A stretch of 24,644 bases of DNA from a virus. The DNA is taken from the UHGV virus genome UHGV-2020843, one strand, 5' to 3'. The translations under genes were made by a program, and so were the position numbers. Below, piece by piece: positions 1 to 20,333 of this stretch. Under the pieces are notes generated by a model. It made no database searches and was not told the DNA's origin. It saw only the letters and a program-made list of their open reading frames with translations. The number at the start of each line of letters is the position of its first letter. Position 1 is the first letter of the stretch.

Positions 1-401
1 GCTGTAGGATTATCAAGCCCGACGTGATCACCATGCCAGTGACTACCGCCATTAATGGAGCAGTCAAAACCTAACAAGATGATGTTTTTCGCCCCCTGGC
101 TGGCAGCAAACAGAATAGCGCGCTGCCCGGAGTTGAAGGCCCACCGGGTATCTGTATCAAACAGATTTAGCCCATAGCGTTTATGAGCCCGGTAATTACA
201 GGTCCAGCGAGAGGCGGAGGACGGCAGAACATCGATGTTTGCATCCCACCAGCGCAGATCACCCGCGTAAATGTATTCACAATCAGGCACGGCTCGCCAG
301 GTGGAGTTAACAGCAATAACCGGCAGCCCCGATCCGGAGATCAGTTCGCAATCTGATTTATTGAGAGACGGGCCGGATGCACAAATGATGAATGTATTCA
401 T
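1..401 (-). CDS. Hypothetical protein, N-terminal 133 aa only (gene continues beyond window start); first gene downstream of Q and the terminator
   Basis: Minus-strand frame open from ATG at 401 to position 1 with no stop (MNTFIICASGPSLNKSDCELISGSGLPVIAV...). GPSL motif is reminiscent of DUF115/MptE-like folds, but this is unverified. Confidence 0.5.
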   Translation of the reverse strand, partial: MNTFIICASGPSLNKSDCELISGSGLPVIAVNSTWRAVPDCEYIYAGDLRWWDANIDVLPSSASRWTCNYRAHKRYGLNLFDTDTRWAFNSGQRAILFAASQGAKNIILLGFDCSINGGSHWHGDHVGLDNPT

Positions 402-594
402 TCGTGTTGACCTGGTTCGGGAGTAATTGGTTACGGTTGCCGATGCTTATCTTCGGCTTGTCTCTGGGGACTGCAATTAACCGTAACGGGGAGAGCACTG
501 AGCCTACTGTGACGGGTTATCGTCACTCTTTCCCCCGAAGGGTGGCCCTCGACGCAGAACGCCCATAAGCCCAATGCTCTTCCCTGTTACGGCC

Positions 595-625
595 ATAAAA
601 AAACCCGCTCGGAGGCGGGTTTAAT
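595..625 (-). terminator. Intrinsic terminator on minus strand (tR'-like position, downstream of Q)
   Basis: Minus-strand reading gives AAACCCGC-CTCCGA-GCGGGTTT followed by TTTTT; lies about 80-110 nt after the Q stop codon. Confidence 0.55.
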
Positions 626-704
626 TTCGTGCAGGCGCAATAACCTACGATTTGAAGCATACACGACAAGTTCGGACAAAATCAAGTTTTAAGTCGCTAA
701 TATG

Positions 705-1508
705 CTAAATTTTGTTCACATCACCACGAAAGCTCGTTGCGTCCTGAAACGCCGAGTCTGCTTTTTGTTCTTCCCTGTGGCAGACGTCGACGAGCACCTC
801 CAGAAACGGTTTCCAGTTACGGGTCCACGTTCTGACGTGCAGATCCGTGACTCGCTTCAGTATCGCTTTATAGGCTGCAGTAGACGGCACCCCAGAAAAT
901 CCGTTTCCGCTGCAGCGCTCGCAGGTTTTGAACACCGGCGCGCCGCGCTCGCTTGTGGCTTTGCGGTCGAGCACCTCACCTTTGCCGCCGCAACGGCATC
1001 GGGCCAGCAGCTCACCTTTACCGTTACATGCCGCGCATTTACGCTTGACCAGTTCGTGCTTGATTTTCGGCGGTACGATTTCCATTCCGTCAGAGTTGAA
1101 GACTCCAGGATGTTTGATCACATCCTCATACTGAGAGGTTAATCCGCTGCCGCTGCAGCTGTGACACGTCACGCTGGTTTCCGCTGAACGGGAGTATTCA
1201 GCAAAGGCGAATTGTGCCAGCGTCAGCATGCACCAGCCAAACTCTCCTGCAGCTGCTTTACGTACATTCCTGGGAGCTGATTCCATTGCATGACGCGCCA
1301 GAGCCTGTACAGCCAGCTGCTCATCACTTTTGCTGATCCCGGTCTTACCAAAGAAGGCAGCCAGACCAAACCGCGCTCGGCTGCTGGTGGTACCAATGGC
1401 CGCCATAACATCGGTGCCGGTGATACGATCCGGAGAGGTTCCTTTCACGTCGTCGCTGATGTGCATTCCCTGAGGGCTAAAGTGTTTTAGTGATGCCTCC
1501 AGTTTCAT
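705..1508 (-). CDS. Q: Late-gene antitermination protein, lambda Q family
   Basis: 267-aa ORF; recalled lambda Q shares blocks EASLKHFSP/ESVAKFHSP, TGTDVMAAIG/SGTDVMAAMG, FGLAAFFGK/FGMAAFCGK, YSRSAET/YCRSAAT, PSTAAYKAI/PASAAYRAV and C-terminal VLVDVCHREEQKAD/ALVVQCHKEESIAD; Cys-rich zinc-finger region. Start overlaps upstream stop as ATGA. Confidence 0.8.
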   Translation of the reverse strand: MKLEASLKHFSPQGMHISDDVKGTSPDRITGTDVMAAIGTTSSRARFGLAAFFGKTGISKSDEQLAVQALARHAMESAPRNVRKAAAGEFGWCMLTLAQFAFAEYSRSAETSVTCHSCSGSGLTSQYEDVIKHPGVFNSDGMEIVPPKIKHELVKRKCAACNGKGELLARCRCGGKGEVLDRKATSERGAPVFKTCERCSGNGFSGVPSTAAYKAILKRVTDLHVRTWTRNWKPFLEVLVDVCHREEQKADSAFQDATSFRGDVNKI

Positions 1509-2365
1509 TCTTCACACTCCCCTACCAGGTTAAGAATCACCGCCGCGCCGTGGTTTTCCATGAATTCGTCCTTTCCACTGTCAAGAAACCAGCGACATAC
1601 CTCAACGGCTTCGACGCGCGTTACGGGTTTGATGGTAGCCAGCAATTTTTCAAGGTAGCGCTCGCGGTCATATACCGATTCGTGATGCTCTGAGTAACCA
1701 AACTCATAGCCCTGTTCTTTAGTTGCAGTGTGGCGAACGCTGTAGAGCCAGTCCCAGTAAACAAACTCACGAACAACGTCAGAAAGCGTATTGGGCTCTG
1801 GCAGTACATCACGATAGCCTTCAACAAATGCCCGGCGCTGTTCATCAATTTCGTTCATACGGCTGCCGTTAATGCTGCCAGCTTTCCTCTCGGCCGGAGT
1901 CCATCCCCAAAGGTGATCGTCGATAAATTTCGGGGAAGACTTGATTACTCGCTCGGCCTCCACATCTTCGAGAGCTGCCTCATAGCTGCCGAACGTGGCC
2001 CTGACTGATGCTGCTTTTTTGATGTCCTCCCGGGCGTTCCTGATTGCCTGTGCCGGGTTATCCATGCCGATGGTACCGAAAGCAACCTGGAAAGGATCGC
2101 CACCATTCGCCAGCAAATAACGCGCGTAACGTTCCTCGGCCTCTTTTGGGGAGATTTCAATTTTCTCCAGCGCGGCTTCGGCTGCGTCCAGATGTGCGGG
2201 TTCGTTCAGACGGATCACCTCCAGCACCCAAAGATAAGCGTCAGTTTGCTTATGCCCGGTGATTCTCCGTTGCTCGGGCAGACGCTTGATGTTTGCGAGG
2301 GCGGAGCTGTGCGCTGCCGTCGGGATGGTGAATAGTGCTTTATGTTCGTTGTTATCAGTACGCAT
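1505..2365 (-). CDS. Hypothetical protein (286 aa) translationally coupled between primase and Q
   Basis: Long ORF with TAATG overlap to primase stop and ATGA overlap to Q start; no motif I can assign. Confidence 0.6.
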   Translation of the reverse strand: MRTDNNEHKALFTIPTAAHSSALANIKRLPEQRRITGHKQTDAYLWVLEVIRLNEPAHLDAAEAALEKIEISPKEAEERYARYLLANGGDPFQVAFGTIGMDNPAQAIRNAREDIKKAASVRATFGSYEAALEDVEAERVIKSSPKFIDDHLWGWTPAERKAGSINGSRMNEIDEQRRAFVEGYRDVLPEPNTLSDVVREFVYWDWLYSVRHTATKEQGYEFGYSEHHESVYDRERYLEKLLATIKPVTRVEAVEVCRWFLDSGKDEFMENHGAAVILNLVGECEE

Positions 2366-3339
2366 TACGCAGCCGCCTTTTTCTTGAAGAAAACCACCTC
2401 ACGAACCTGATCGCCGTTCATGAGCATGTCGTTAAAATCCCCGTTATCCGGGTAGTAGATGCTGATTTTTTCCAGGTCATTTTTTGCCAGTAAGTTGGCA
2501 TGGGCGCATTCCGTGGCCGCAGCCAATCCAGTGGCGCTGTTTACGTCTCGATCTGCGAAAATAATCAAATTTTTCACACCTGCAGGAACACGGAATTTCT
2601 TCATGAATCCGCTGGTCATGGTGGCCCAGGTGTTAACGTTGTATAGCTGCTTGCAGGAAAGAGCCGTTTCGATACCCTCGGCAATTCCGAGGGTCGTCGC
2701 TACCGGGAACATGCGAATAGCGACGGAACGGGCATGATCCAGATAGCTTTCGTCCTGAAGAGATTTCTGGCGCTTCGCTCCGGCAGAATCCCTTAGTTGG
2801 GCTTTCTGATTGCCGTCCAGTAAGGTTCTGTGCAGATAGCAAAGCTCGCCTTTGTCGTCAGTTGCGAGTGAATACAGACACTGGTAAACCTTACCGCCGT
2901 AGCGTTGTTTATCATTGAACTTCACTGCCTCTTGTGGGAGCTGATAAATTCCCCTGGCCTGCAGATATTCCGCCCCGGTAGTTCCTTTCAGGTTGACCAG
3001 TTTCGAAAATTTGGACAGAACCCGATCACGGGCGCTTACGGCATCTGAAGTGCGCGGAAACGCTTCGCGGGTAAAGTTATTACCAATCAGCTGGTCTATT
3101 TCCCTGCAAATTTCATTGAATGGCTTCCCTTGCGTCAGAGTGACAAGCTTCATTCCGTCACCGCTGCCGCAGGTACAGATCCATGTTCCCCGGCCGTCCC
3201 GGTCATCAATACGCAGCTTTCCCCGCGCACCACATACCGGACATTCGCCTTTAAAGTGATTTCTGGCATTAATGGGAGGTAACCCGAAGTGCTCAAAAAT
3301 CATTGCCCATTGACCTTTTGCCGCTTCTGCCGTCTTCAT
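2365..3339 (-). CDS. DNA primase (zinc-ribbon plus TOPRIM domain, phage/P4-type)
   Basis: N-terminal CPVCGARGK...WICTCGSGDG zinc-binding motif followed by TOPRIM-like IAEGIETALS and FADRD acidic motifs; ATGA overlap with helicase stop. Confidence 0.8.
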   Translation of the reverse strand: MKTAEAAKGQWAMIFEHFGLPPINARNHFKGECPVCGARGKLRIDDRDGRGTWICTCGSGDGMKLVTLTQGKPFNEICREIDQLIGNNFTREAFPRTSDAVSARDRVLSKFSKLVNLKGTTGAEYLQARGIYQLPQEAVKFNDKQRYGGKVYQCLYSLATDDKGELCYLHRTLLDGNQKAQLRDSAGAKRQKSLQDESYLDHARSVAIRMFPVATTLGIAEGIETALSCKQLYNVNTWATMTSGFMKKFRVPAGVKNLIIFADRDVNSATGLAAATECAHANLLAKNDLEKISIYYPDNGDFNDMLMNGDQVREVVFFKKKAAA

Positions 3340-4952
3340 GCTCGTTTTCCTAACTGCTGTTTGATATCGCTAATCGCTTTCTGTGCTTGCTGTACTGAGG
3401 ATGGGGCTGCCGTGCCTGATGCCTCCTGCAGGCGCTTGGCCTTCTCCTGCCCTTTCGCATACGCAATCAATTTGTGCCGGATGAAATTAGAGACAGTCGG
3501 GGTGATCTCCATCGGAAAATCGCTTAACCCGTTAGGCCACTCGTCAAACCGTTCGCGAAAGGTATTTGCGCACCAGCCATCGCTGACGGGCTTTTTCCCC
3601 TGCGATACGCGCTGACGCTGATAGAATTTGATCTGACTCCACCAGGCCTGTTTCTCTGCCTTAGTGGGCTGATGCTGGTTTTTACCCAGCTTTTTGAGTT
3701 TGCGGCCGGTGTCGGTATCGACGTCCTCACCGCCCAGCGGCTTATGCCCACATTTCGGGCATACATAGACGCCAGCTGGCTTCATGTAATGGCATTGAGA
3801 GCATTCGTGTGGCAGTTTTTCGGCCCGTTCCTCAGCTGCGCGGCGCGCGCTTTCCTCCATGCCGTCAGACTTACCGGGAAGATCGTCGTACTCGATTGAA
3901 TCCGGATAACCCAAACGGTGCACGGTACCGCTGTGATCGAAGATGAGGCAGGACTCTTTACCCGGTGCGGTGCGCAGGCCACGCCCGAGCGCCTGCAGCC
4001 AGCGAATTTCGCTTTTTGTTGGCCTGGCGTAGATGATGCAACGAACGTCACTATCGAAGCCGGCCACCAGAACGCCCACACTAACGATGATTTTCGTTGC
4101 ACCGGTTTCAAAGCGGTGAATGATGGTCTGGCGTTCATCCACTGGAGTGTCGGCGGTCATGACCTCAGCGTTAACACCCGCCAGGTTAAACTGAATTGTC
4201 AGGTAATTGGCGTGGGCTACGTTGACGCAGAAAGCGATGGTAGGCAGATCCCGGCCATTCTCCAGCCAGTTCTGTACGATGTCGCCCACCAGCGTAGAGC
4301 CGCACATGATTTCAGCCAGCTGCGTTTCGTTGTAATCGCTGCCGTACTCAAGCGATGCTTTGGTTTTAACACCTTTCAGATCCGGCTTAGTTGGCGCGTA
4401 AAATTCATATTTACTCAGATCGCCACGCTGAATTAACTCGCCGATGGTGGTGGGCTTAATCAGTCGGTCATAGTATTTGCCCAGGAACGGGGAAAACGGA
4501 GTACCCGACAGGCCAATCACCTTTACGCCTTTGCCGCGTAGACGGTCGATATCCTTCAGGATGCGTTTTTTACGCAGGTGTGCTTCGTCGATAATCAGCA
4601 GATCGATATTTTCAGGAAAAACACGACGAATAAGCGTATCGGCGCTGGCAATCTGAATTTTCCGGTCCGGATCGTAGTTCGGGTGATCCGCCCAGATATA
4701 ACCGATTTCATCCCCCGGTAATCCATACTCCACGAACCGATTAGCCGTCTGACCGATCAGGATGGTGTACGGTGCACAGAACAGGACGCGCATACCACGG
4801 CTGACAAACCCGGCAACGATGAAGGCCGCCAAACCCGTTTTACCGCTACCGGTTGGCGAATACACCATGAAGGTGTCGTTTGCCTTCCAGTCACGGCGCA
4901 ACATGTTTAGCGCTCGTTCCTGTGCAAAATTCGGCGTGATCGTCAGCTCCAT
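3336..4952 (-). CDS. Phage SF2 DNA helicase (DEAD/DEAH-box type)
   Basis: Walker A SPTGSGKT, Walker B IIDEAHL, C-terminal Cys4 motif CSQCH...CPKCGH; 538 aa; GGGGG ribosome-binding site upstream. Confidence 0.8.
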   Translation of the reverse strand: MELTITPNFAQERALNMLRRDWKANDTFMVYSPTGSGKTGLAAFIVAGFVSRGMRVLFCAPYTILIGQTANRFVEYGLPGDEIGYIWADHPNYDPDRKIQIASADTLIRRVFPENIDLLIIDEAHLRKKRILKDIDRLRGKGVKVIGLSGTPFSPFLGKYYDRLIKPTTIGELIQRGDLSKYEFYAPTKPDLKGVKTKASLEYGSDYNETQLAEIMCGSTLVGDIVQNWLENGRDLPTIAFCVNVAHANYLTIQFNLAGVNAEVMTADTPVDERQTIIHRFETGATKIIVSVGVLVAGFDSDVRCIIYARPTKSEIRWLQALGRGLRTAPGKESCLIFDHSGTVHRLGYPDSIEYDDLPGKSDGMEESARRAAEERAEKLPHECSQCHYMKPAGVYVCPKCGHKPLGGEDVDTDTGRKLKKLGKNQHQPTKAEKQAWWSQIKFYQRQRVSQGKKPVSDGWCANTFRERFDEWPNGLSDFPMEITPTVSNFIRHKLIAYAKGQEKAKRLQEASGTAAPSSVQQAQKAISDIKQQLGKRA

Positions 4953-5675: not shown

Positions 5676-5906
5676 TCAGATATCCCCGGAAGGTCGTGGG
5701 AATACCGTTGGGATATCAGGCCGTAATTCGTATGGCTTAACCTCCCCGTTTGTAGCCATTGAGATAGCGACTGCATTTTGAGGGGAAATCTTCTGATGGT
5801 TGTTCAGCCACTTCCAAACAGCCCCCTGAGTGACACCGATGGCTCTAGCCAACGCAGATTGGCCCCCTGCCAATCTCACTGCTTTCTGAATAGCGTTTTC
5901 TGACAT
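5676..5906 (-). CDS. cro: Cro/YdaS-like helix-turn-helix regulator
   Basis: 76-aa ORF with HTH-like segment QSALARAIGVTQGAVWKW, divergent from the cI-like repressor across an operator-containing intergenic region. Confidence 0.7.
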   Translation of the reverse strand: MSENAIQKAVRLAGGQSALARAIGVTQGAVWKWLNNHQKISPQNAVAISMATNGEVKPYELRPDIPTVFPRPSGDI

Positions 5907-6039: not shown

Positions 6040-6747
6040 ATGAGTGGAACGACTTTTTCGGACCGGCTAAGAGACAGCATGCAGAAGGCTGGGCTGACCC
6101 AAAGCCAGTTAGCTGAAGCAGTCGGAGTGTCACAGGGGGCAATTCAGAAACTTGTATCTGGTAAGGCAAAGTCGACAACTAAGCTTGTTCAGATAGCTAA
6201 TGTCCTTGGTGTTCGCCCTGAATGGTTAAGCGAAGGCGTTGGTGCGATCCGTAAATCAGATGATTTCCCTCCAGAAGAAAAGTGGAGCAAAGTCGAGACC
6301 TGGGATAGCAACACGCCTTTAGAATCTGATGAAGTGGAAGTCCCATTCCTTAAAGATATTGAGTTTGCATGCGGTAGCGGCAGAGTTATGGAAGAAGATT
6401 ACAACGGTTATAAACTGAGGTTTTCGAAGTCTACCCTGAGAAGAGTTGGAGCAAGCACAGATGGTTCAGGCATTATCTGTTTCCCGGCTGCCGGGAACAG
6501 TATGGAACCACTCATACCAGACGGTACAACAGTGGCTGTTAACATCGAAGACAAAAAAATCGTTGATGGAAAGATTTACGCGATCAATCAGGAAGGGTGG
6601 AAGCGGATCAAACTCCTATACCGGACAGGCCCGGATGAGTTGACTATCCGTAGCTATAACGCAGAAGAGTACCCTGATGAGGTAGTGAAGATGTCCAGCG
6701 TAGAGGTCGTTGGTAGAGTGTTTTGGACTTCTACAGTTTGGAACTAA
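6040..6747 (+). CDS. cI: CI-type phage repressor (N-terminal HTH, C-terminal S24/LexA-like peptidase domain)
   Basis: 235 aa; HTH LTQSQLAEAVGVSQGAIQKL; C-terminal AGNSMEP Ser motif and downstream Lys (KRIK), typical of autocleaving LexA/CI repressors; GAGG ribosome-binding site upstream. Confidence 0.85.
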   Translation: MSGTTFSDRLRDSMQKAGLTQSQLAEAVGVSQGAIQKLVSGKAKSTTKLVQIANVLGVRPEWLSEGVGAIRKSDDFPPEEKWSKVETWDSNTPLESDEVEVPFLKDIEFACGSGRVMEEDYNGYKLRFSKSTLRRVGASTDGSGIICFPAAGNSMEPLIPDGTTVAVNIEDKKIVDGKIYAINQEGWKRIKLLYRTGPDELTIRSYNAEEYPDEVVKMSSVEVVGRVFWTSTVWN

Positions 6748-9275: not shown

Positions 9276-9474
9276 TTGCGTACCCCTTTCTACGTACTGC
9301 AGGGACGCGGGGGAAACGGTAGAAGCCGTTAACAAACGGATACAAAGGGGGTTATGGAAGGAGGGAGTACATGTATTAAAAGTCGATGGCGTTAAAGAAC
9401 GCTGGATTGACTTAACGGAGGTTTCAAAGTGGGCAAGAAAGAACAAGGATCATTATCTCTCCCAAGAGGAGTAA
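9265..9474 (+). CDS. xis: Excisionase-like protein
   Basis: About 69 aa, immediately upstream of and overlapping the integrase; GGGAGG ribosome-binding site; small basic DNA-binding-like protein in the canonical xis position. Confidence 0.55.
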   Translation: MSLDCVPLSTYCRDAGETVEAVNKRIQRGLWKEGVHVLKVDGVKERWIDLTEVSKWARKNKDHYLSQEE

Positions 9475-10601
9475 CCATCCGCCAGCATAAAACTGGCGAC
9501 ACTCTGGTTATCACTTTCACATACAAAGGGGTTCTGTGCCGGGAGCCCCTCTCCAAAATGGAAGCAAACGCGCGCGGTGTGAAGTACGCCGAGCGCCTGC
9601 TCGGGGAGATACAGAACCAGATCGTCAGTGGCACCTTTGAATATGCGAAATATTTCCCCAACTCCAAAAAGCTGGAGCTATTCGGGGTGGTGAAGAAAAC
9701 CAAAAACATAAAGTCCTACCTGGACGAGTACCTCAAAATCTGCCAGAACCGCAACCTGTCCCCGTCGACTATAAATGGTTATGAAAAATGCCTGTCGGCA
9801 CTGTCAGCTCTGCATAAACTCCACGTGTCAGAACTGACGCCAGCGGTCCTTAAAAACTGGATAGCCAGCCGGAAAACAAAGCTGAAAACGACCAGGAATA
9901 ACCTTTCGTTTCTGCGCAGCGCAATCGATGAAGCTGTTACGGATGGCCTGCTGACCATTAACCCGGTAACCCTCGTCAGCGCCAGCCGGTACCACGTGAT
10001 CGACAGCAGCCCGAGCGCCGACGATTACGAGGTTGACCCGTTCACGCCAGCGGAGACCCTCGCCATTTACCAGAACTGCAGGTACCCGGAATGGGAAAAC
10101 CTGTTCCGCTTTGCTTTCAATACCGGTCTGCGGAGCTCCGAACTGTGCGCGCTGCGCTGGCCTGATCTCGACACCATCGCGAACACAGCCCACGTTCAGG
10201 CGGCCAGTGTCGTAGGGGTACTTAAAGGCACCAAGACAAAAGCCGGTACCCGCAAGGTGGAGCTGAACAGTGAGGCGCTGGCGGCCCTGCAGGCGCAGAA
10301 GCAATACACCTTTATGAAAAGTGAGTTCATATTCAGCGATCCGAAAACGGGAGAACCCTGGGCGAACGCCGACGCTATCCGTAAAAAAGCATGGGTGCCG
10401 ACCCTGAAAAAAGCTGGCGTGCGCTACCGTAACCCGTACCAGACGCGGCACACATTCGCCACCAAGCATATTAGCCAGGGCGTTAACCTCTTCTGGCTTG
10501 CCGGACAGATGGGCCACAAAGGGCCGGAAATGATATTCCGCAACTACGGTAAATACCTGGCTGAATATGACGGTAAAACCGCGATTTCAACCGCGCTGTA
10601 G
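9429..10601 (+). CDS. int: Tyrosine site-specific integrase (lambda Int-like)
   Basis: 390 aa; C-terminal catalytic region with RHTFATKH, GHKG and YGKY (R-H-R-Y type residues); located next to the attachment-site core. Confidence 0.85.
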   Translation: MGKKEQGSLSLPRGVTIRQHKTGDTLVITFTYKGVLCREPLSKMEANARGVKYAERLLGEIQNQIVSGTFEYAKYFPNSKKLELFGVVKKTKNIKSYLDEYLKICQNRNLSPSTINGYEKCLSALSALHKLHVSELTPAVLKNWIASRKTKLKTTRNNLSFLRSAIDEAVTDGLLTINPVTLVSASRYHVIDSSPSADDYEVDPFTPAETLAIYQNCRYPEWENLFRFAFNTGLRSSELCALRWPDLDTIANTAHVQAASVVGVLKGTKTKAGTRKVELNSEALAALQAQKQYTFMKSEFIFSDPKTGEPWANADAIRKKAWVPTLKKAGVRYRNPYQTRHTFATKHISQGVNLFWLAGQMGHKGPEMIFRNYGKYLAEYDGKTAISTAL

Positions 10602-19958: not shown

Positions 19959-20217
19959 TTAGACATCCGTGACAATTTTGCGAAAATTAAGGAGATGTTA
20001 TGACACAGTCCAATCGGATCACTGCATCATCACCAGTGATCTAAATACTTCACAGCCATTCTCGGTCGCAGGTATCAAGCTTTTCAGGATTCCACAAATA
20101 TTGTAACCCTGACGTCTAATTTGGTTATATAACATACTGCCCCAACTAACGTAAGGTAGGCACAGCCTTAATCAAGGTTTTGGTTTTCAAATAGTTCAGA
20201 GCTGAGACCGCCAACCG

Positions 20218-20284
20218 CACTATGGCACTATGGCACTATGGCACTATGGCACTATGGCACTATGGCACTATGGCACTATGGCAC
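20218..20284. repeat. Perfect tandem octamer repeat (TATGGCAC) x 8, intergenic
   Basis: Eight uninterrupted copies of TATGGCAC (20221-20284) preceded by a partial CAC; lies between the yfjM stop and the yfjL start. Confidence 0.95.
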
Positions 20285-20333
20285 CGCCAGCGATTGTAAT
20301 CACACTTGATATTATAAAACACAGTTGCACGCA

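Follow-up and report, generated by a model that had tools for sequence, protein, structure and literature searches.

We analysed a 24,644-nucleotide (nt) stretch of the virus genome UHGV-2020843 (the window) and found that, on its minus strand, the interval between the gene for an antiterminator Q and the first late gene is largely occupied by a conserved structured RNA (positions 430-595). Positions 1-704 are best explained as the region that controls the late operon in a lambdoid prophage from an Enterobacter-type host, and we hold this explanation as a whole, processing of the leader RNA and the gene cassette behind it included, with somewhat more belief than doubt. The locus joins a control region of known kind with an accessory cassette that is uncharacterised and, apparently, with a conserved family of leader RNA that has a homologue in phage lambda. 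The leader RNA appears to be undescribed and is the feature of greatest interest here.

The first-pass annotation had placed the first late gene just beyond a terminator, with plain spacer in between. That picture did not hold: approximately 195 nt separate the terminator from the gene start, and approximately 165 nt of these (595-430) are conserved structured RNA. In Escherichia coli prophages that are 96% identical, the gene starts about 25 nt past the terminator, and alignment shows that the window has about 175 nt more. The 236-nt region folds at -90.9 kcal/mol, with a z-score of -4.8 relative to shuffled sequences. Its elements are as follows (MFE, minimum free energy).

565-595, minus strand: 5' strand of stem A, from MFE folds; includes R1 (595..586, GGCCGUAAC), the upstream copy able to pair with R2
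508-564, minus strand: variable apex of stem A, which branches into three small hairpins in the window and is wholly different between classes
479-507, minus strand: 3' strand of stem A, ending in R2 (487..479, GUUACGGUU), the strand common to both mutually exclusive helices
439-478, minus strand: conserved core, comprising AAUUGCA, hairpin D, AA and hairpin C; scores 86.5 bits with covariance model R1
471..460, minus strand: hairpin D, GUCC-NNN-GAGAC
457..439, minus strand: hairpin C, GCCGA-AGAUAAGCA-UCGGC
430-438, minus strand: R3 (AACCGUAAC), the 3' strand of stem B, which closes the core

Stem A comprises approximately 29 base pairs (bp; 595-565 with 507-479) with two single-nucleotide interruptions. 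Its length is 18-29 bp in other classes, and its duplex energies lie between -26 and -37 kcal/mol across classes. Stem B is 9 bp long (487-479 with 438-430) and encloses the near-invariant core AAUUGCAGUCC..GAGACAA..AAGAUAAGC, in which the unpaired nucleotides are nearly invariant. The core structure accounts for 91.8% of cells as paired, compared with 79% after shuffling and 22-48% when the controls were slid, and double-sided changes are seen in 10 of its 18 pairs (stem B, 7 of 9; hairpin C, 2 of 5).

The organization of the unit centres on R2, which can pair either with the upstream strand R1, extending stem A, or with the downstream strand R3, forming stem B. R2 is GUUACGGUU in the window and GUUGUGGUG or GGGGUGCGGUG in other units. 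In the full-unit set the R1:R2 helix is 90.7% paired with three covarying pairs and the R2:R3 helix 99.1% paired with four, and both are preserved through joint changes between CACAAC, CGUAAC and GCACCC types. This pattern is suggestive of a conserved choice between two helices; because there are only three or four independent sequence types, the covariation is suggestive rather than conclusive. The two conformers of the window RNA are 4.6 kcal/mol apart in predicted energy, and the 3' fragment folded alone adopts stem B and the core.

BLAST located the 3' part of the stretch in unannotated intergenic DNA of unrelated phages, including Salmonella phage epsilon34, where it lies between PL/nutL and N, Sasha-like siphoviruses and an Enterobacter plasmid resembling a plasmid-prophage; the last of these was the one, partial, match of a plasmid search. 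A degenerate pattern for the core matched 83 viral contigs exactly. Covariance model R1, built from 38 distinct core copies, recovered 45 further loci at 56-87 bits among loci fetched with half-patterns. The core is found in at least 118 distinct phage or prophage sequences. Only 11 of 185,579 genomes in a one-genome-per-species set carry it, all of them Enterobacterales, and 5,426 E. coli genomes yielded one partial match.

The genomic contexts of the 118 copies fall into recurring types. N leaders account for 28 of them; here a nutL-type site precedes the core and the N start codon follows about 73 nt past it, and in the copies inspected the upstream nutL is of the boxA/boxB type. Late leaders hold approximately 33, which have Q on their upstream side, lysis genes on their downstream side, or both; the Q is of either lambda or 933W type. 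Seven lie beside tRNA-Met/His/Gly arrays, and the remainder are mostly near immunity regions. The core is always on the strand of the downstream gene. Some copies are directly followed by an intrinsic terminator and some occur in tandem; one unit that looks free-standing (L160) has no promoter that we could find directly upstream.

Individual copies have further features. In five units (L006, L039, L042, L058 and L154) the apex of stem A carries two hairpins resembling tRNA T arms (CUGGUUCGAUUCCAG and a GUUCGAUUCGG variant). In L023 and L198, a long terminator-like hairpin lies approximately 60-130 nt past the core, its loop containing a Shine-Dalgarno sequence and a two-codon mini-ORF (open reading frame), AGGAGGAUGAAGAUAAUGUUCUGA; it looks like a translation-coupled attenuator. 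In L193 (Kluyvera sp., near 4745) a core with a truncated closing stem directly follows an NlpC/P60-like gene and precedes a terminator, and no phage genes were seen nearby. This copy may be a remnant or a chromosomal small RNA (sRNA).

Searches against known RNA families returned no counterpart. Rfam gave no match in the whole window at gathering threshold, and for positions 350-760 at E <= 10 gave weak chance matches only, the stronger of them driven by the terminator hairpin. Run on nine related loci, including those of lambda, the rV5-like phage, D6, C1, Sasha and three viral contigs, it returned tRNAs only. ARAGORN found no tRNA or transfer-messenger RNA in the window, and a full-text literature search for the core sequence found nothing relevant. 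The c4 antisense RNA of P1/P7 (RF01695), which is tRNA-like and processed by RNase P, is similar in being a small structured phage leader RNA with complementary copies on both sides and an acceptor-like closing stem. However, there is no Rfam C4 match even at E <= 10, the repeats in the window pair to form the closing stem rather than with loops, and no antirepressor gene lies downstream.

Other identities were considered and rejected. The UGCUCU of stem A is not a boxA, since N-leader copies have a separate canonical boxA (GGCUCUUUAACAA, CGCUCUUUC) and boxB upstream and since the motif itself varies (ACUCU, GUUCU). The core motifs and strand order do not fit HDV-like (hepatitis delta virus-like), hammerhead, twister or pistol ribozymes by eye, and these too gave no Rfam match. 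As for a mimic of a CRISPR (clustered regularly interspaced short palindromic repeats) repeat, the sequence is unlike the enterobacterial type I-E and I-F repeats. A pseudoknot between the loops and the hairpin D triloop has complementarity in epsilon34 and pE76 that is lost in other classes.

The scaffold of the leader is also present in lambda. Seven nucleotides past the U-tract of lambda tR' we find CACAACAGGUAAGAGCAUUG...CCAGUGCUCUUUCCGUUGUGCUG...CAGCACAAC, which corresponds to the scaffold of R1, stem A, R2 and R3; read from the U-tract itself, the lambda sequence is AUAUCUG-CACAACAGGUAAGAGCAUUGAG...CCAGUGCUCUUUCCGUUGUGCUG-AAUUAAGCGAAUA-CCGGAAGCAGAACCGG-...-CAGCACAACCC. The lambda and window leaders share CACAAC/CGUAAC, AGG-AAGAGCAUUG...AGUGCUCU...GUUGUG/GUUACG and the closing repeat, and CACAACAGGUAAGAGCA and UGCUCUUUCCGUUGUG would form a duplex in the lambda leader (lambda positions 44787-44947). 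The surroundings agree as well, with Q of the same family and the same order of Q, promoter region, terminator, untranslated leader and late genes. Because lambda has the same scaffold after tR', the apparent insertion in the window would be a long-standing component of lambdoid late leaders. The enclosed core is different in lambda, where covariance model R1 finds no match. The two phages also differ in the terminated RNA, which is 194 nt in lambda and predicted at about 50 nt in the window, and in the first late gene, which is the holin gene S in lambda and a glycosyltransferase-like gene in the window. A 1988 study by Daniels et al., cited in PMC7547250, reportedly concerns, to go by its title, RNase III processing sites in the Q-dependent late RNA of lambda.

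A second link to lambda comes from its N leader, in which CUUUGGGGUGUGUG...CCACACACCAAAG corresponds to the extended stem B found in N-leader copies, CUUUGGGGUGUGGUG...CACCACACCACCAAAG; in lambda this is the structure, sensitive to RNase III, through which repression of translation by N is relieved. The interval that holds this hairpin, between nutL and the N ribosome-binding site, is the one that holds the 28 window-type cores in other phages. The interior of the hairpin, on the other hand, is unrelated to the window-type core, and the copy in the window is in a late leader. According to PMC5725501, this lambda interval has a high degree of structure, and work on how RNase III controls the translation of N is cited there (Wilson 2002).

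Three kinds of core were seen, namely the window type, a type shared by lambda, rV5 and D6, and that of phage C1. The lambda-type core sits inside the tRNA arrays of rV5-like virulent phages, with a tRNA-Ser-like gene on one side and another tRNA on the other, each within approximately 10 nt. Phage D6, which is P1-like, has it after a tRNA-Ser-like gene and nested in the apex of a helix resembling stem A. Phage C1 has the scaffold with the third kind of core. Because the lambda-type core occurs in these other contexts and the scaffold of C1 holds a third core, scaffold and cores appear to be modular. The gene directly upstream of the lambda-type core resembles tRNA-Ser(UGA) but is atypical, and its variable arm is long (1398-1484 in L204, from the rV5-like phage APCEc02; 1390-1476 in L205, from D6). 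It is unannotated in the rV5-like phage and falls below the Rfam tRNA gathering threshold, and the D6 record annotates its tRNAs on the strand opposite to that given by Rfam.

These observations can be brought together in a model of a modular phage RNA family, which we advance tentatively and at somewhat less than an even chance. The family would consist of a helix-switching scaffold (R1, stem A, R2, core and R3), switched probably by RNase III cleavage, and of interchangeable tRNA-sized cores that are stable RNAs with a specific partner from host or phage, set directly behind the N- and Q-loading sites of temperate phages or in the tRNA arrays of virulent phages. The processing of the leader belongs to the explanation favoured for the locus as a whole, in which the leader would serve as a device for processing and folding. 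As first transcribed, R1 and R2 would pair to give the stem A of approximately 29 bp, a duplex length that meets the roughly two-helical-turn criterion for RNase III sites. By this length and by analogy with lambda, RNase III would cut stem A, detaching the 5' part that bears the terminator. The freed R2 would then pair with R3, closing the core as a compact tRNA-sized domain. The closed core would form the new 5' end of the late messenger RNA (mRNA) or be released as a stable RNA; at the 5' end of the mRNA it might affect the stability or translation of the first gene.

Several points weigh against this explanation of the leader. Covariance model R1 misses the lambda core, which places homology with lambda at the level of the scaffold only. 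The covariation derives from about three to four independent R1/R2/R3 types, and relatedness among copies inflates the counts. Cleavage of stem A by RNase III is a prediction from duplex length and from lambda. The E. coli relatives that are 96% identical in Q and cassette are without the unit, so the leader unit is dispensable for late expression. Finally, the long duplex of the N-leader copies is an extended stem B rather than stem A, and a single processing scheme may not suit every context.

In the main rival explanation the core is not a leader device of the mRNA but non-coding cargo, the gene of a stable small RNA standing on its own. The tRNA-processing enzymes RNase P and RNase E, with RNase III, would excise it from the early or late transcript, and it would then act in trans on a target of host or phage through its invariant loops. 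We consider this possible though doubtful; it is compatible with the processing model and is favoured by the tRNA-array contexts. The core has the size of a tRNA, its closing stem stacks on hairpin C as an acceptor stem does on a T arm, and many copies carry NCCA-like tails. One class lies approximately 25 nt upstream of a tRNA-Met/His/Gly array, and the lambda-type core is found both in the rV5-like tRNA arrays, with gaps of 10 nt or less, and after the tRNA-Ser-like gene of D6. That several classes are directly followed by an intrinsic terminator is as expected of an sRNA gene, tandem units exist, and Stx (Shiga toxin) phages have tRNA genes at the same position. Nevertheless, ARAGORN and the Rfam tRNA model make no call, no trans target was identified, and the position of 28 of the 118 copies, approximately 25-40 nt upstream of the N ribosome-binding site, suggests a role in cis.

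A cis role could also be that of a switch sensing a protein or a small ligand, in which the bound core favours R2:R3 pairing and alters translation or elongation, possibly through the antitermination complex. Two mutually exclusive helices that are both conserved and covarying, conformers close in energy and near-invariant unpaired core nucleotides would fit such a switch, as would a position always just past the sites where N or Q modifies polymerase and just ahead of the first gene. We nonetheless judge it improbable, since R3 overlaps neither the ribosome-binding site nor a terminator in most classes and no expression platform is evident; copies in tRNA arrays or right before terminators have no gene to regulate, and the resemblance of UGCUCU to boxA fails as described above. 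Least probable is an element without RNA function, in which case the unit would be neutral or selfish DNA inserted between tR' and the gene, either a mobile palindrome or a linker for recombination where modules meet: the indel relative to the 96%-identical E. coli prophages, the shuffling of 5' and 3' halves and of cores among unrelated phages, as at a recombination hotspot, and the resemblance of R1 and R3 to flanking direct repeats are outweighed by the absence of a second copy from the 24.6-kb window, which also led us to reject a repeated mobile element there, by the restriction to 11 of 185,579 species genomes, all Enterobacterales, by an orientation always with transcription, by compensatory helix changes and invariant loops across phages that share nothing else, and by differences in R1 and R3 between classes that covary with R2, as expected of pairing and not of a target-site duplication. 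Both of these explanations are less likely than the processing model or an RNA acting in trans.

The control elements upstream of the leader are those of a lambda-type late operon.

705-1508, minus strand: antiterminator Q of the lambda-Q family, 267 amino acids (PF03589, 8e-51; phrog_127, 2e-96)
656-685, minus strand: candidate PR'-like promoter, with -35 TTGATT (685..680), an 18-nt spacer and -10 TATGCT (661..656)
597-649, minus strand: predicted short PR'-to-tR' transcript of about 50 nt, with a small 5' hairpin and the terminator hairpin; its start is placed from the -10 position
597-622, minus strand: tR'-like intrinsic terminator, AAACCCGC-CUCCGA-GCGGGUUU followed by UUUU

Because of its PF03589 and phrog_127 matches and of 31% identity to lambda Q over the whole length (BLASTP, 2e-37), the 267-residue protein is, as judged by sequence, a lambda-family Q. 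Alignment places an insert of approximately 50 residues in it relative to lambda Q, with two additional CxxC motifs. Four CxxCxGxG-like repeats are present in the protein, and there is a sub-threshold match to the DnaJ central zinc-finger domain. The gap between Q and the first late gene is 303 nt in the window and of equal length in contigs encoding an identical Q, and gene order is the same in these contigs and in relatives.

The terminator begins 82 nt past the Q stop codon, in good agreement with the 100 nt or so given by the first-pass annotation. Its hairpin (622..601) has eight pairs, five of them G-C, and a 6-nt loop, with a predicted free energy of -12.3 kcal/mol, and is followed by a run of seven U ending at 597. 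Six terminator-like patterns were found in 3 kb compared with 3.6 +/- 2.2 in shuffles, and 622-597 is the strongest of them. It is base-for-base identical in L001, L002, L195, L197 and L201, which come from E. coli, Enterobacter and Pseudocitrobacter; L001 is E. coli DX6, whose allele has no leader unit, and L197 and L201 derive from Enterobacter soli or E. asburiae strains. The proposed promoter proved more equivocal. Its hexamers and spacer are present as annotated, and the stretch from TTGATT to the terminator is kept in relatives save for single-base changes. However, TTGATT-18-TATGCT matches the consensus at 8 of 12 positions, below the scanner threshold of 9, and each strand of the window has 2.07 matches of this quality per kb, a rate at which chance alone would place 0.19 in the 90-nt gap. 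A PR'-like promoter is plausible from position and conservation; its sequence alone is not significant, and this weakness counts against the explanation of the locus as a whole. The hexamers AATCGT and TAGGTT, which resemble -10 elements of the kind that induces a sigma-dependent pause close to the promoter, are also visible. Within the spacer (662-679, minus strand), TTGTCC and TTGTCG stand 10 nt apart, one helical turn; that this repeat is a candidate Q-binding element is speculation.

The analogy with lambda PR'/tR' that the annotation had drawn is well supported, because a lambda-family Q is present, the terminator occupies the place of tR', and lysis genes lie further downstream in the contigs with identical Q. 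Holin, lysozyme, a spanin-like gene and TerL follow, outside the window, in L002, L197, L207 and L208. The Q/PR'/tR' junction itself is a known, textbook element. Following the lambda paradigm, a constitutive PR'-like promoter would give an RNA of approximately 50 nt halted at tR', and Q, by modifying polymerase at the promoter, would let it continue past tR' into the leader and late genes. Short PR' transcripts ending at tR' are exemplified by StxS of an Stx2 phage and by lambda 6S RNA (PMC7547250). The RNA predicted at the window junction would likewise be short, constitutive and terminated in lysogens. It differs in being shorter and in having no sequence similarity to either, and the conserved RNA of the window lies past the terminator rather than ahead of it.

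The gene reached by read-through runs off the end of the window.

1-401, minus strand: first late gene, 133 of 183 codons (ORF 401..1), encoding a putative glycosyltransferase that is Maf/sialyltransferase-like, with an MptE fold

The 133 codons agree with the partial gene first annotated. In three contigs encoding an identical Q the full gene specifies 183 amino acids, the first 133 of which are 100% identical to the window (L208). The annotation had called the product neither a holin nor a recognisable endolysin and had proposed profile and structure searches of the full gene; these indicate a Maf/sialyltransferase-like protein with an MptE fold rather than a lysis protein. The 183-residue protein matches phrog_4603, 'alpha-2,3-sialyltransferase', at 4e-52, and the fold characteristic of the MptE-like superfamily is present in it. 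PF01973 (MptE-like/DUF115) is listed for most homologues in precomputed Pfam tables. All 99 detectable homologues are unnamed Enterobacterales proteins of approximately 180-200 residues, sharing the invariant motifs SGPSL, N32, D48, WW, HWHGDH (H121, H123 and H126) and NP. The MptE-like fold is common to many small uncharacterised phage proteins, and a literature search on such proteins in phages found nothing relevant.

Comparison with Maf and the GT42 sialyltransferases Cst-I and Cst-II further illustrates the relationship. The N-terminal xSGPSL motif and the SG...LLGFD motif of the window protein resemble GNGPSL and SG...LSGID of Cst-II, to which the profile match is weak. The window-type protein differs from Maf in that its 183 residues amount to the core domain only, the domains that flank it in Maf being absent, and it has the invariant HWHGDH. 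Two results tell against the assignment: PF01973 scores 32.4 bits with the window fragment and 29.6 with the full-length protein, under the curated cut-off of 34.6, and phmmer and profile searches against Protein Data Bank (PDB) sequences gave nothing significant, the Cst-II profile hits having E values of 0.5-1.

In the contigs with identical Q, the Maf-like gene heads a cassette that continues with a GT9 heptosyltransferase-like gene and an S-adenosylmethionine (SAM) methyltransferase gene; genes for holin and lysozyme and one that is spanin-like come after it. The GT9-like protein (gene 2) has 313 residues, lies outside the window, is absent from some relatives and has no Pfam or NCBIfam match. 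Its nearest known counterparts are the GT9 heptosyltransferases WaaC/WaaF and the protein heptosyltransferases of the TibC/BAHT group, and its invariant Cys/His cluster (C258, C260, H265 and C267) recalls the iron-binding site of TibC. Gene 3 encodes 204 residues and matches Methyltransf_23 at 3e-11. NCBIfam and the PADLOC defence models gave no match for the cassette, and the first late gene matched no toxin or defence family. The structure models are confident (predicted local distance difference test (pLDDT) scores of 92.6 and 92.5) and predict soluble alpha/beta folds; the best structural matches are Maf, a flagellin glycosyltransferase, for gene 1 and TibC for gene 2. In L208 (7653-8594) and L209 the 313-residue gene was not called and a short ORF on the opposite strand was called in its place, whereas L207 and L197 have the gene intact. 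Some copies of this phage may therefore carry a disrupted form.

The cassette is variable, because several relatives have the Maf-like gene directly before the lysis genes, with neither the GT9-like gene nor the methyltransferase gene. In further phages whose Q or leader is related, tRNA or lysis genes come next instead. Stx phages have their toxin genes at this position past tR', and the first late gene had accordingly been proposed as cargo at the classic moron position. The part of that proposal that stands is a variable accessory cassette, whose genes, like morons, are present in some and absent from other otherwise similar phages. The first late gene is nevertheless no classic moron, which would have its own promoter and terminator and an atypical composition: neither a promoter nor a terminator of its own was found, minus-strand positions 402-600 hold no promoter-like site, and the GC content of the cassette, 0.54-0.57, is like that of its neighbours (0.50-0.56). 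We conclude that the cassette is probably an accessory, late-expressed module for glycosylation and methylation. It would glycosylate and methylate an acceptor late in infection, with virion proteins and the cell envelope as candidates. The donors are, at a guess from the folds and the enteric host repertoire, of CMP-Kdo and ADP-heptose type.

The first late gene might instead be a lysogenic-conversion enzyme that remodels host lipopolysaccharide (LPS) or capsule, and not a late modifier of virion or DNA. We regard this as unlikely. The folds are those of sialyl- or nonulosonate transferases and of LPS heptosyltransferases, phage-borne O-antigen modification is common in Enterobacteriaceae, and some read-through of tR' could give low expression in a lysogen. 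Yet lysogens should not express genes that lie behind tR' and for which no separate promoter was detected, and both best structural matches, TibC and Maf, glycosylate protein, not LPS. The soluble alpha/beta folds of the models also speak against it, though no membrane-spanning segment was looked for.

The left 10 kb of the window is a lambdoid prophage read on the minus strand. Other genes of this part are as follows.

1505-2365, minus strand: 286-residue protein between primase and Q (phrog_6204, 6e-176, a tight PHROG)
2365-3339, in the minus-strand series: zinc-ribbon/Toprim primase
3336-4952, in the minus-strand series: DEAD-box helicase
5676-5906: Cro/YdaS-type gene
6040-6747, plus strand: cI-like repressor

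The 286-residue protein has no match in the Pfam, NCBIfam or PADLOC models; the RefSeq label of a homologue is 'helix-turn-helix domain-containing'. An ORF of 390 codons (9429-10601, plus strand) is at the position of an Arm-DNA-binding integrase in relatives. The prophage probably ends near 10.7 kb, with host DNA beyond. In the non-prophage part of the window, positions 20209-20296 form a perfect tandem array of about ten copies of the 8-nt unit GCACTATG; because the unit length is not a multiple of three, the array suggests phase variation or a repeat with a regulatory role.

The first late gene, which is not a toxin or lysis gene, belongs to a family of Maf/sialyltransferase-like phage proteins that is widespread but uncharacterised, and it heads a putative glycosylation cassette. 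To our knowledge, phage virion glycosylation has so far been studied mainly in mycobacteriophages. The cassette occurs in widespread prophages of Enterobacter, Citrobacter and Klebsiella type, at the position of the Stx toxin genes, and is a candidate system by which enteric phages might glycosylate virion or envelope. The leader RNA, if functional, would constitute a new family of structured phage RNA and give a role to leader regions, including that of lambda, to which, as far as we could find, nothing beyond 'RNase III sites' has been assigned. Were the modular-family model true, the 'empty' leader of approximately 400 nt between tR' and S of lambda would harbour a functional RNA that has escaped notice for decades.

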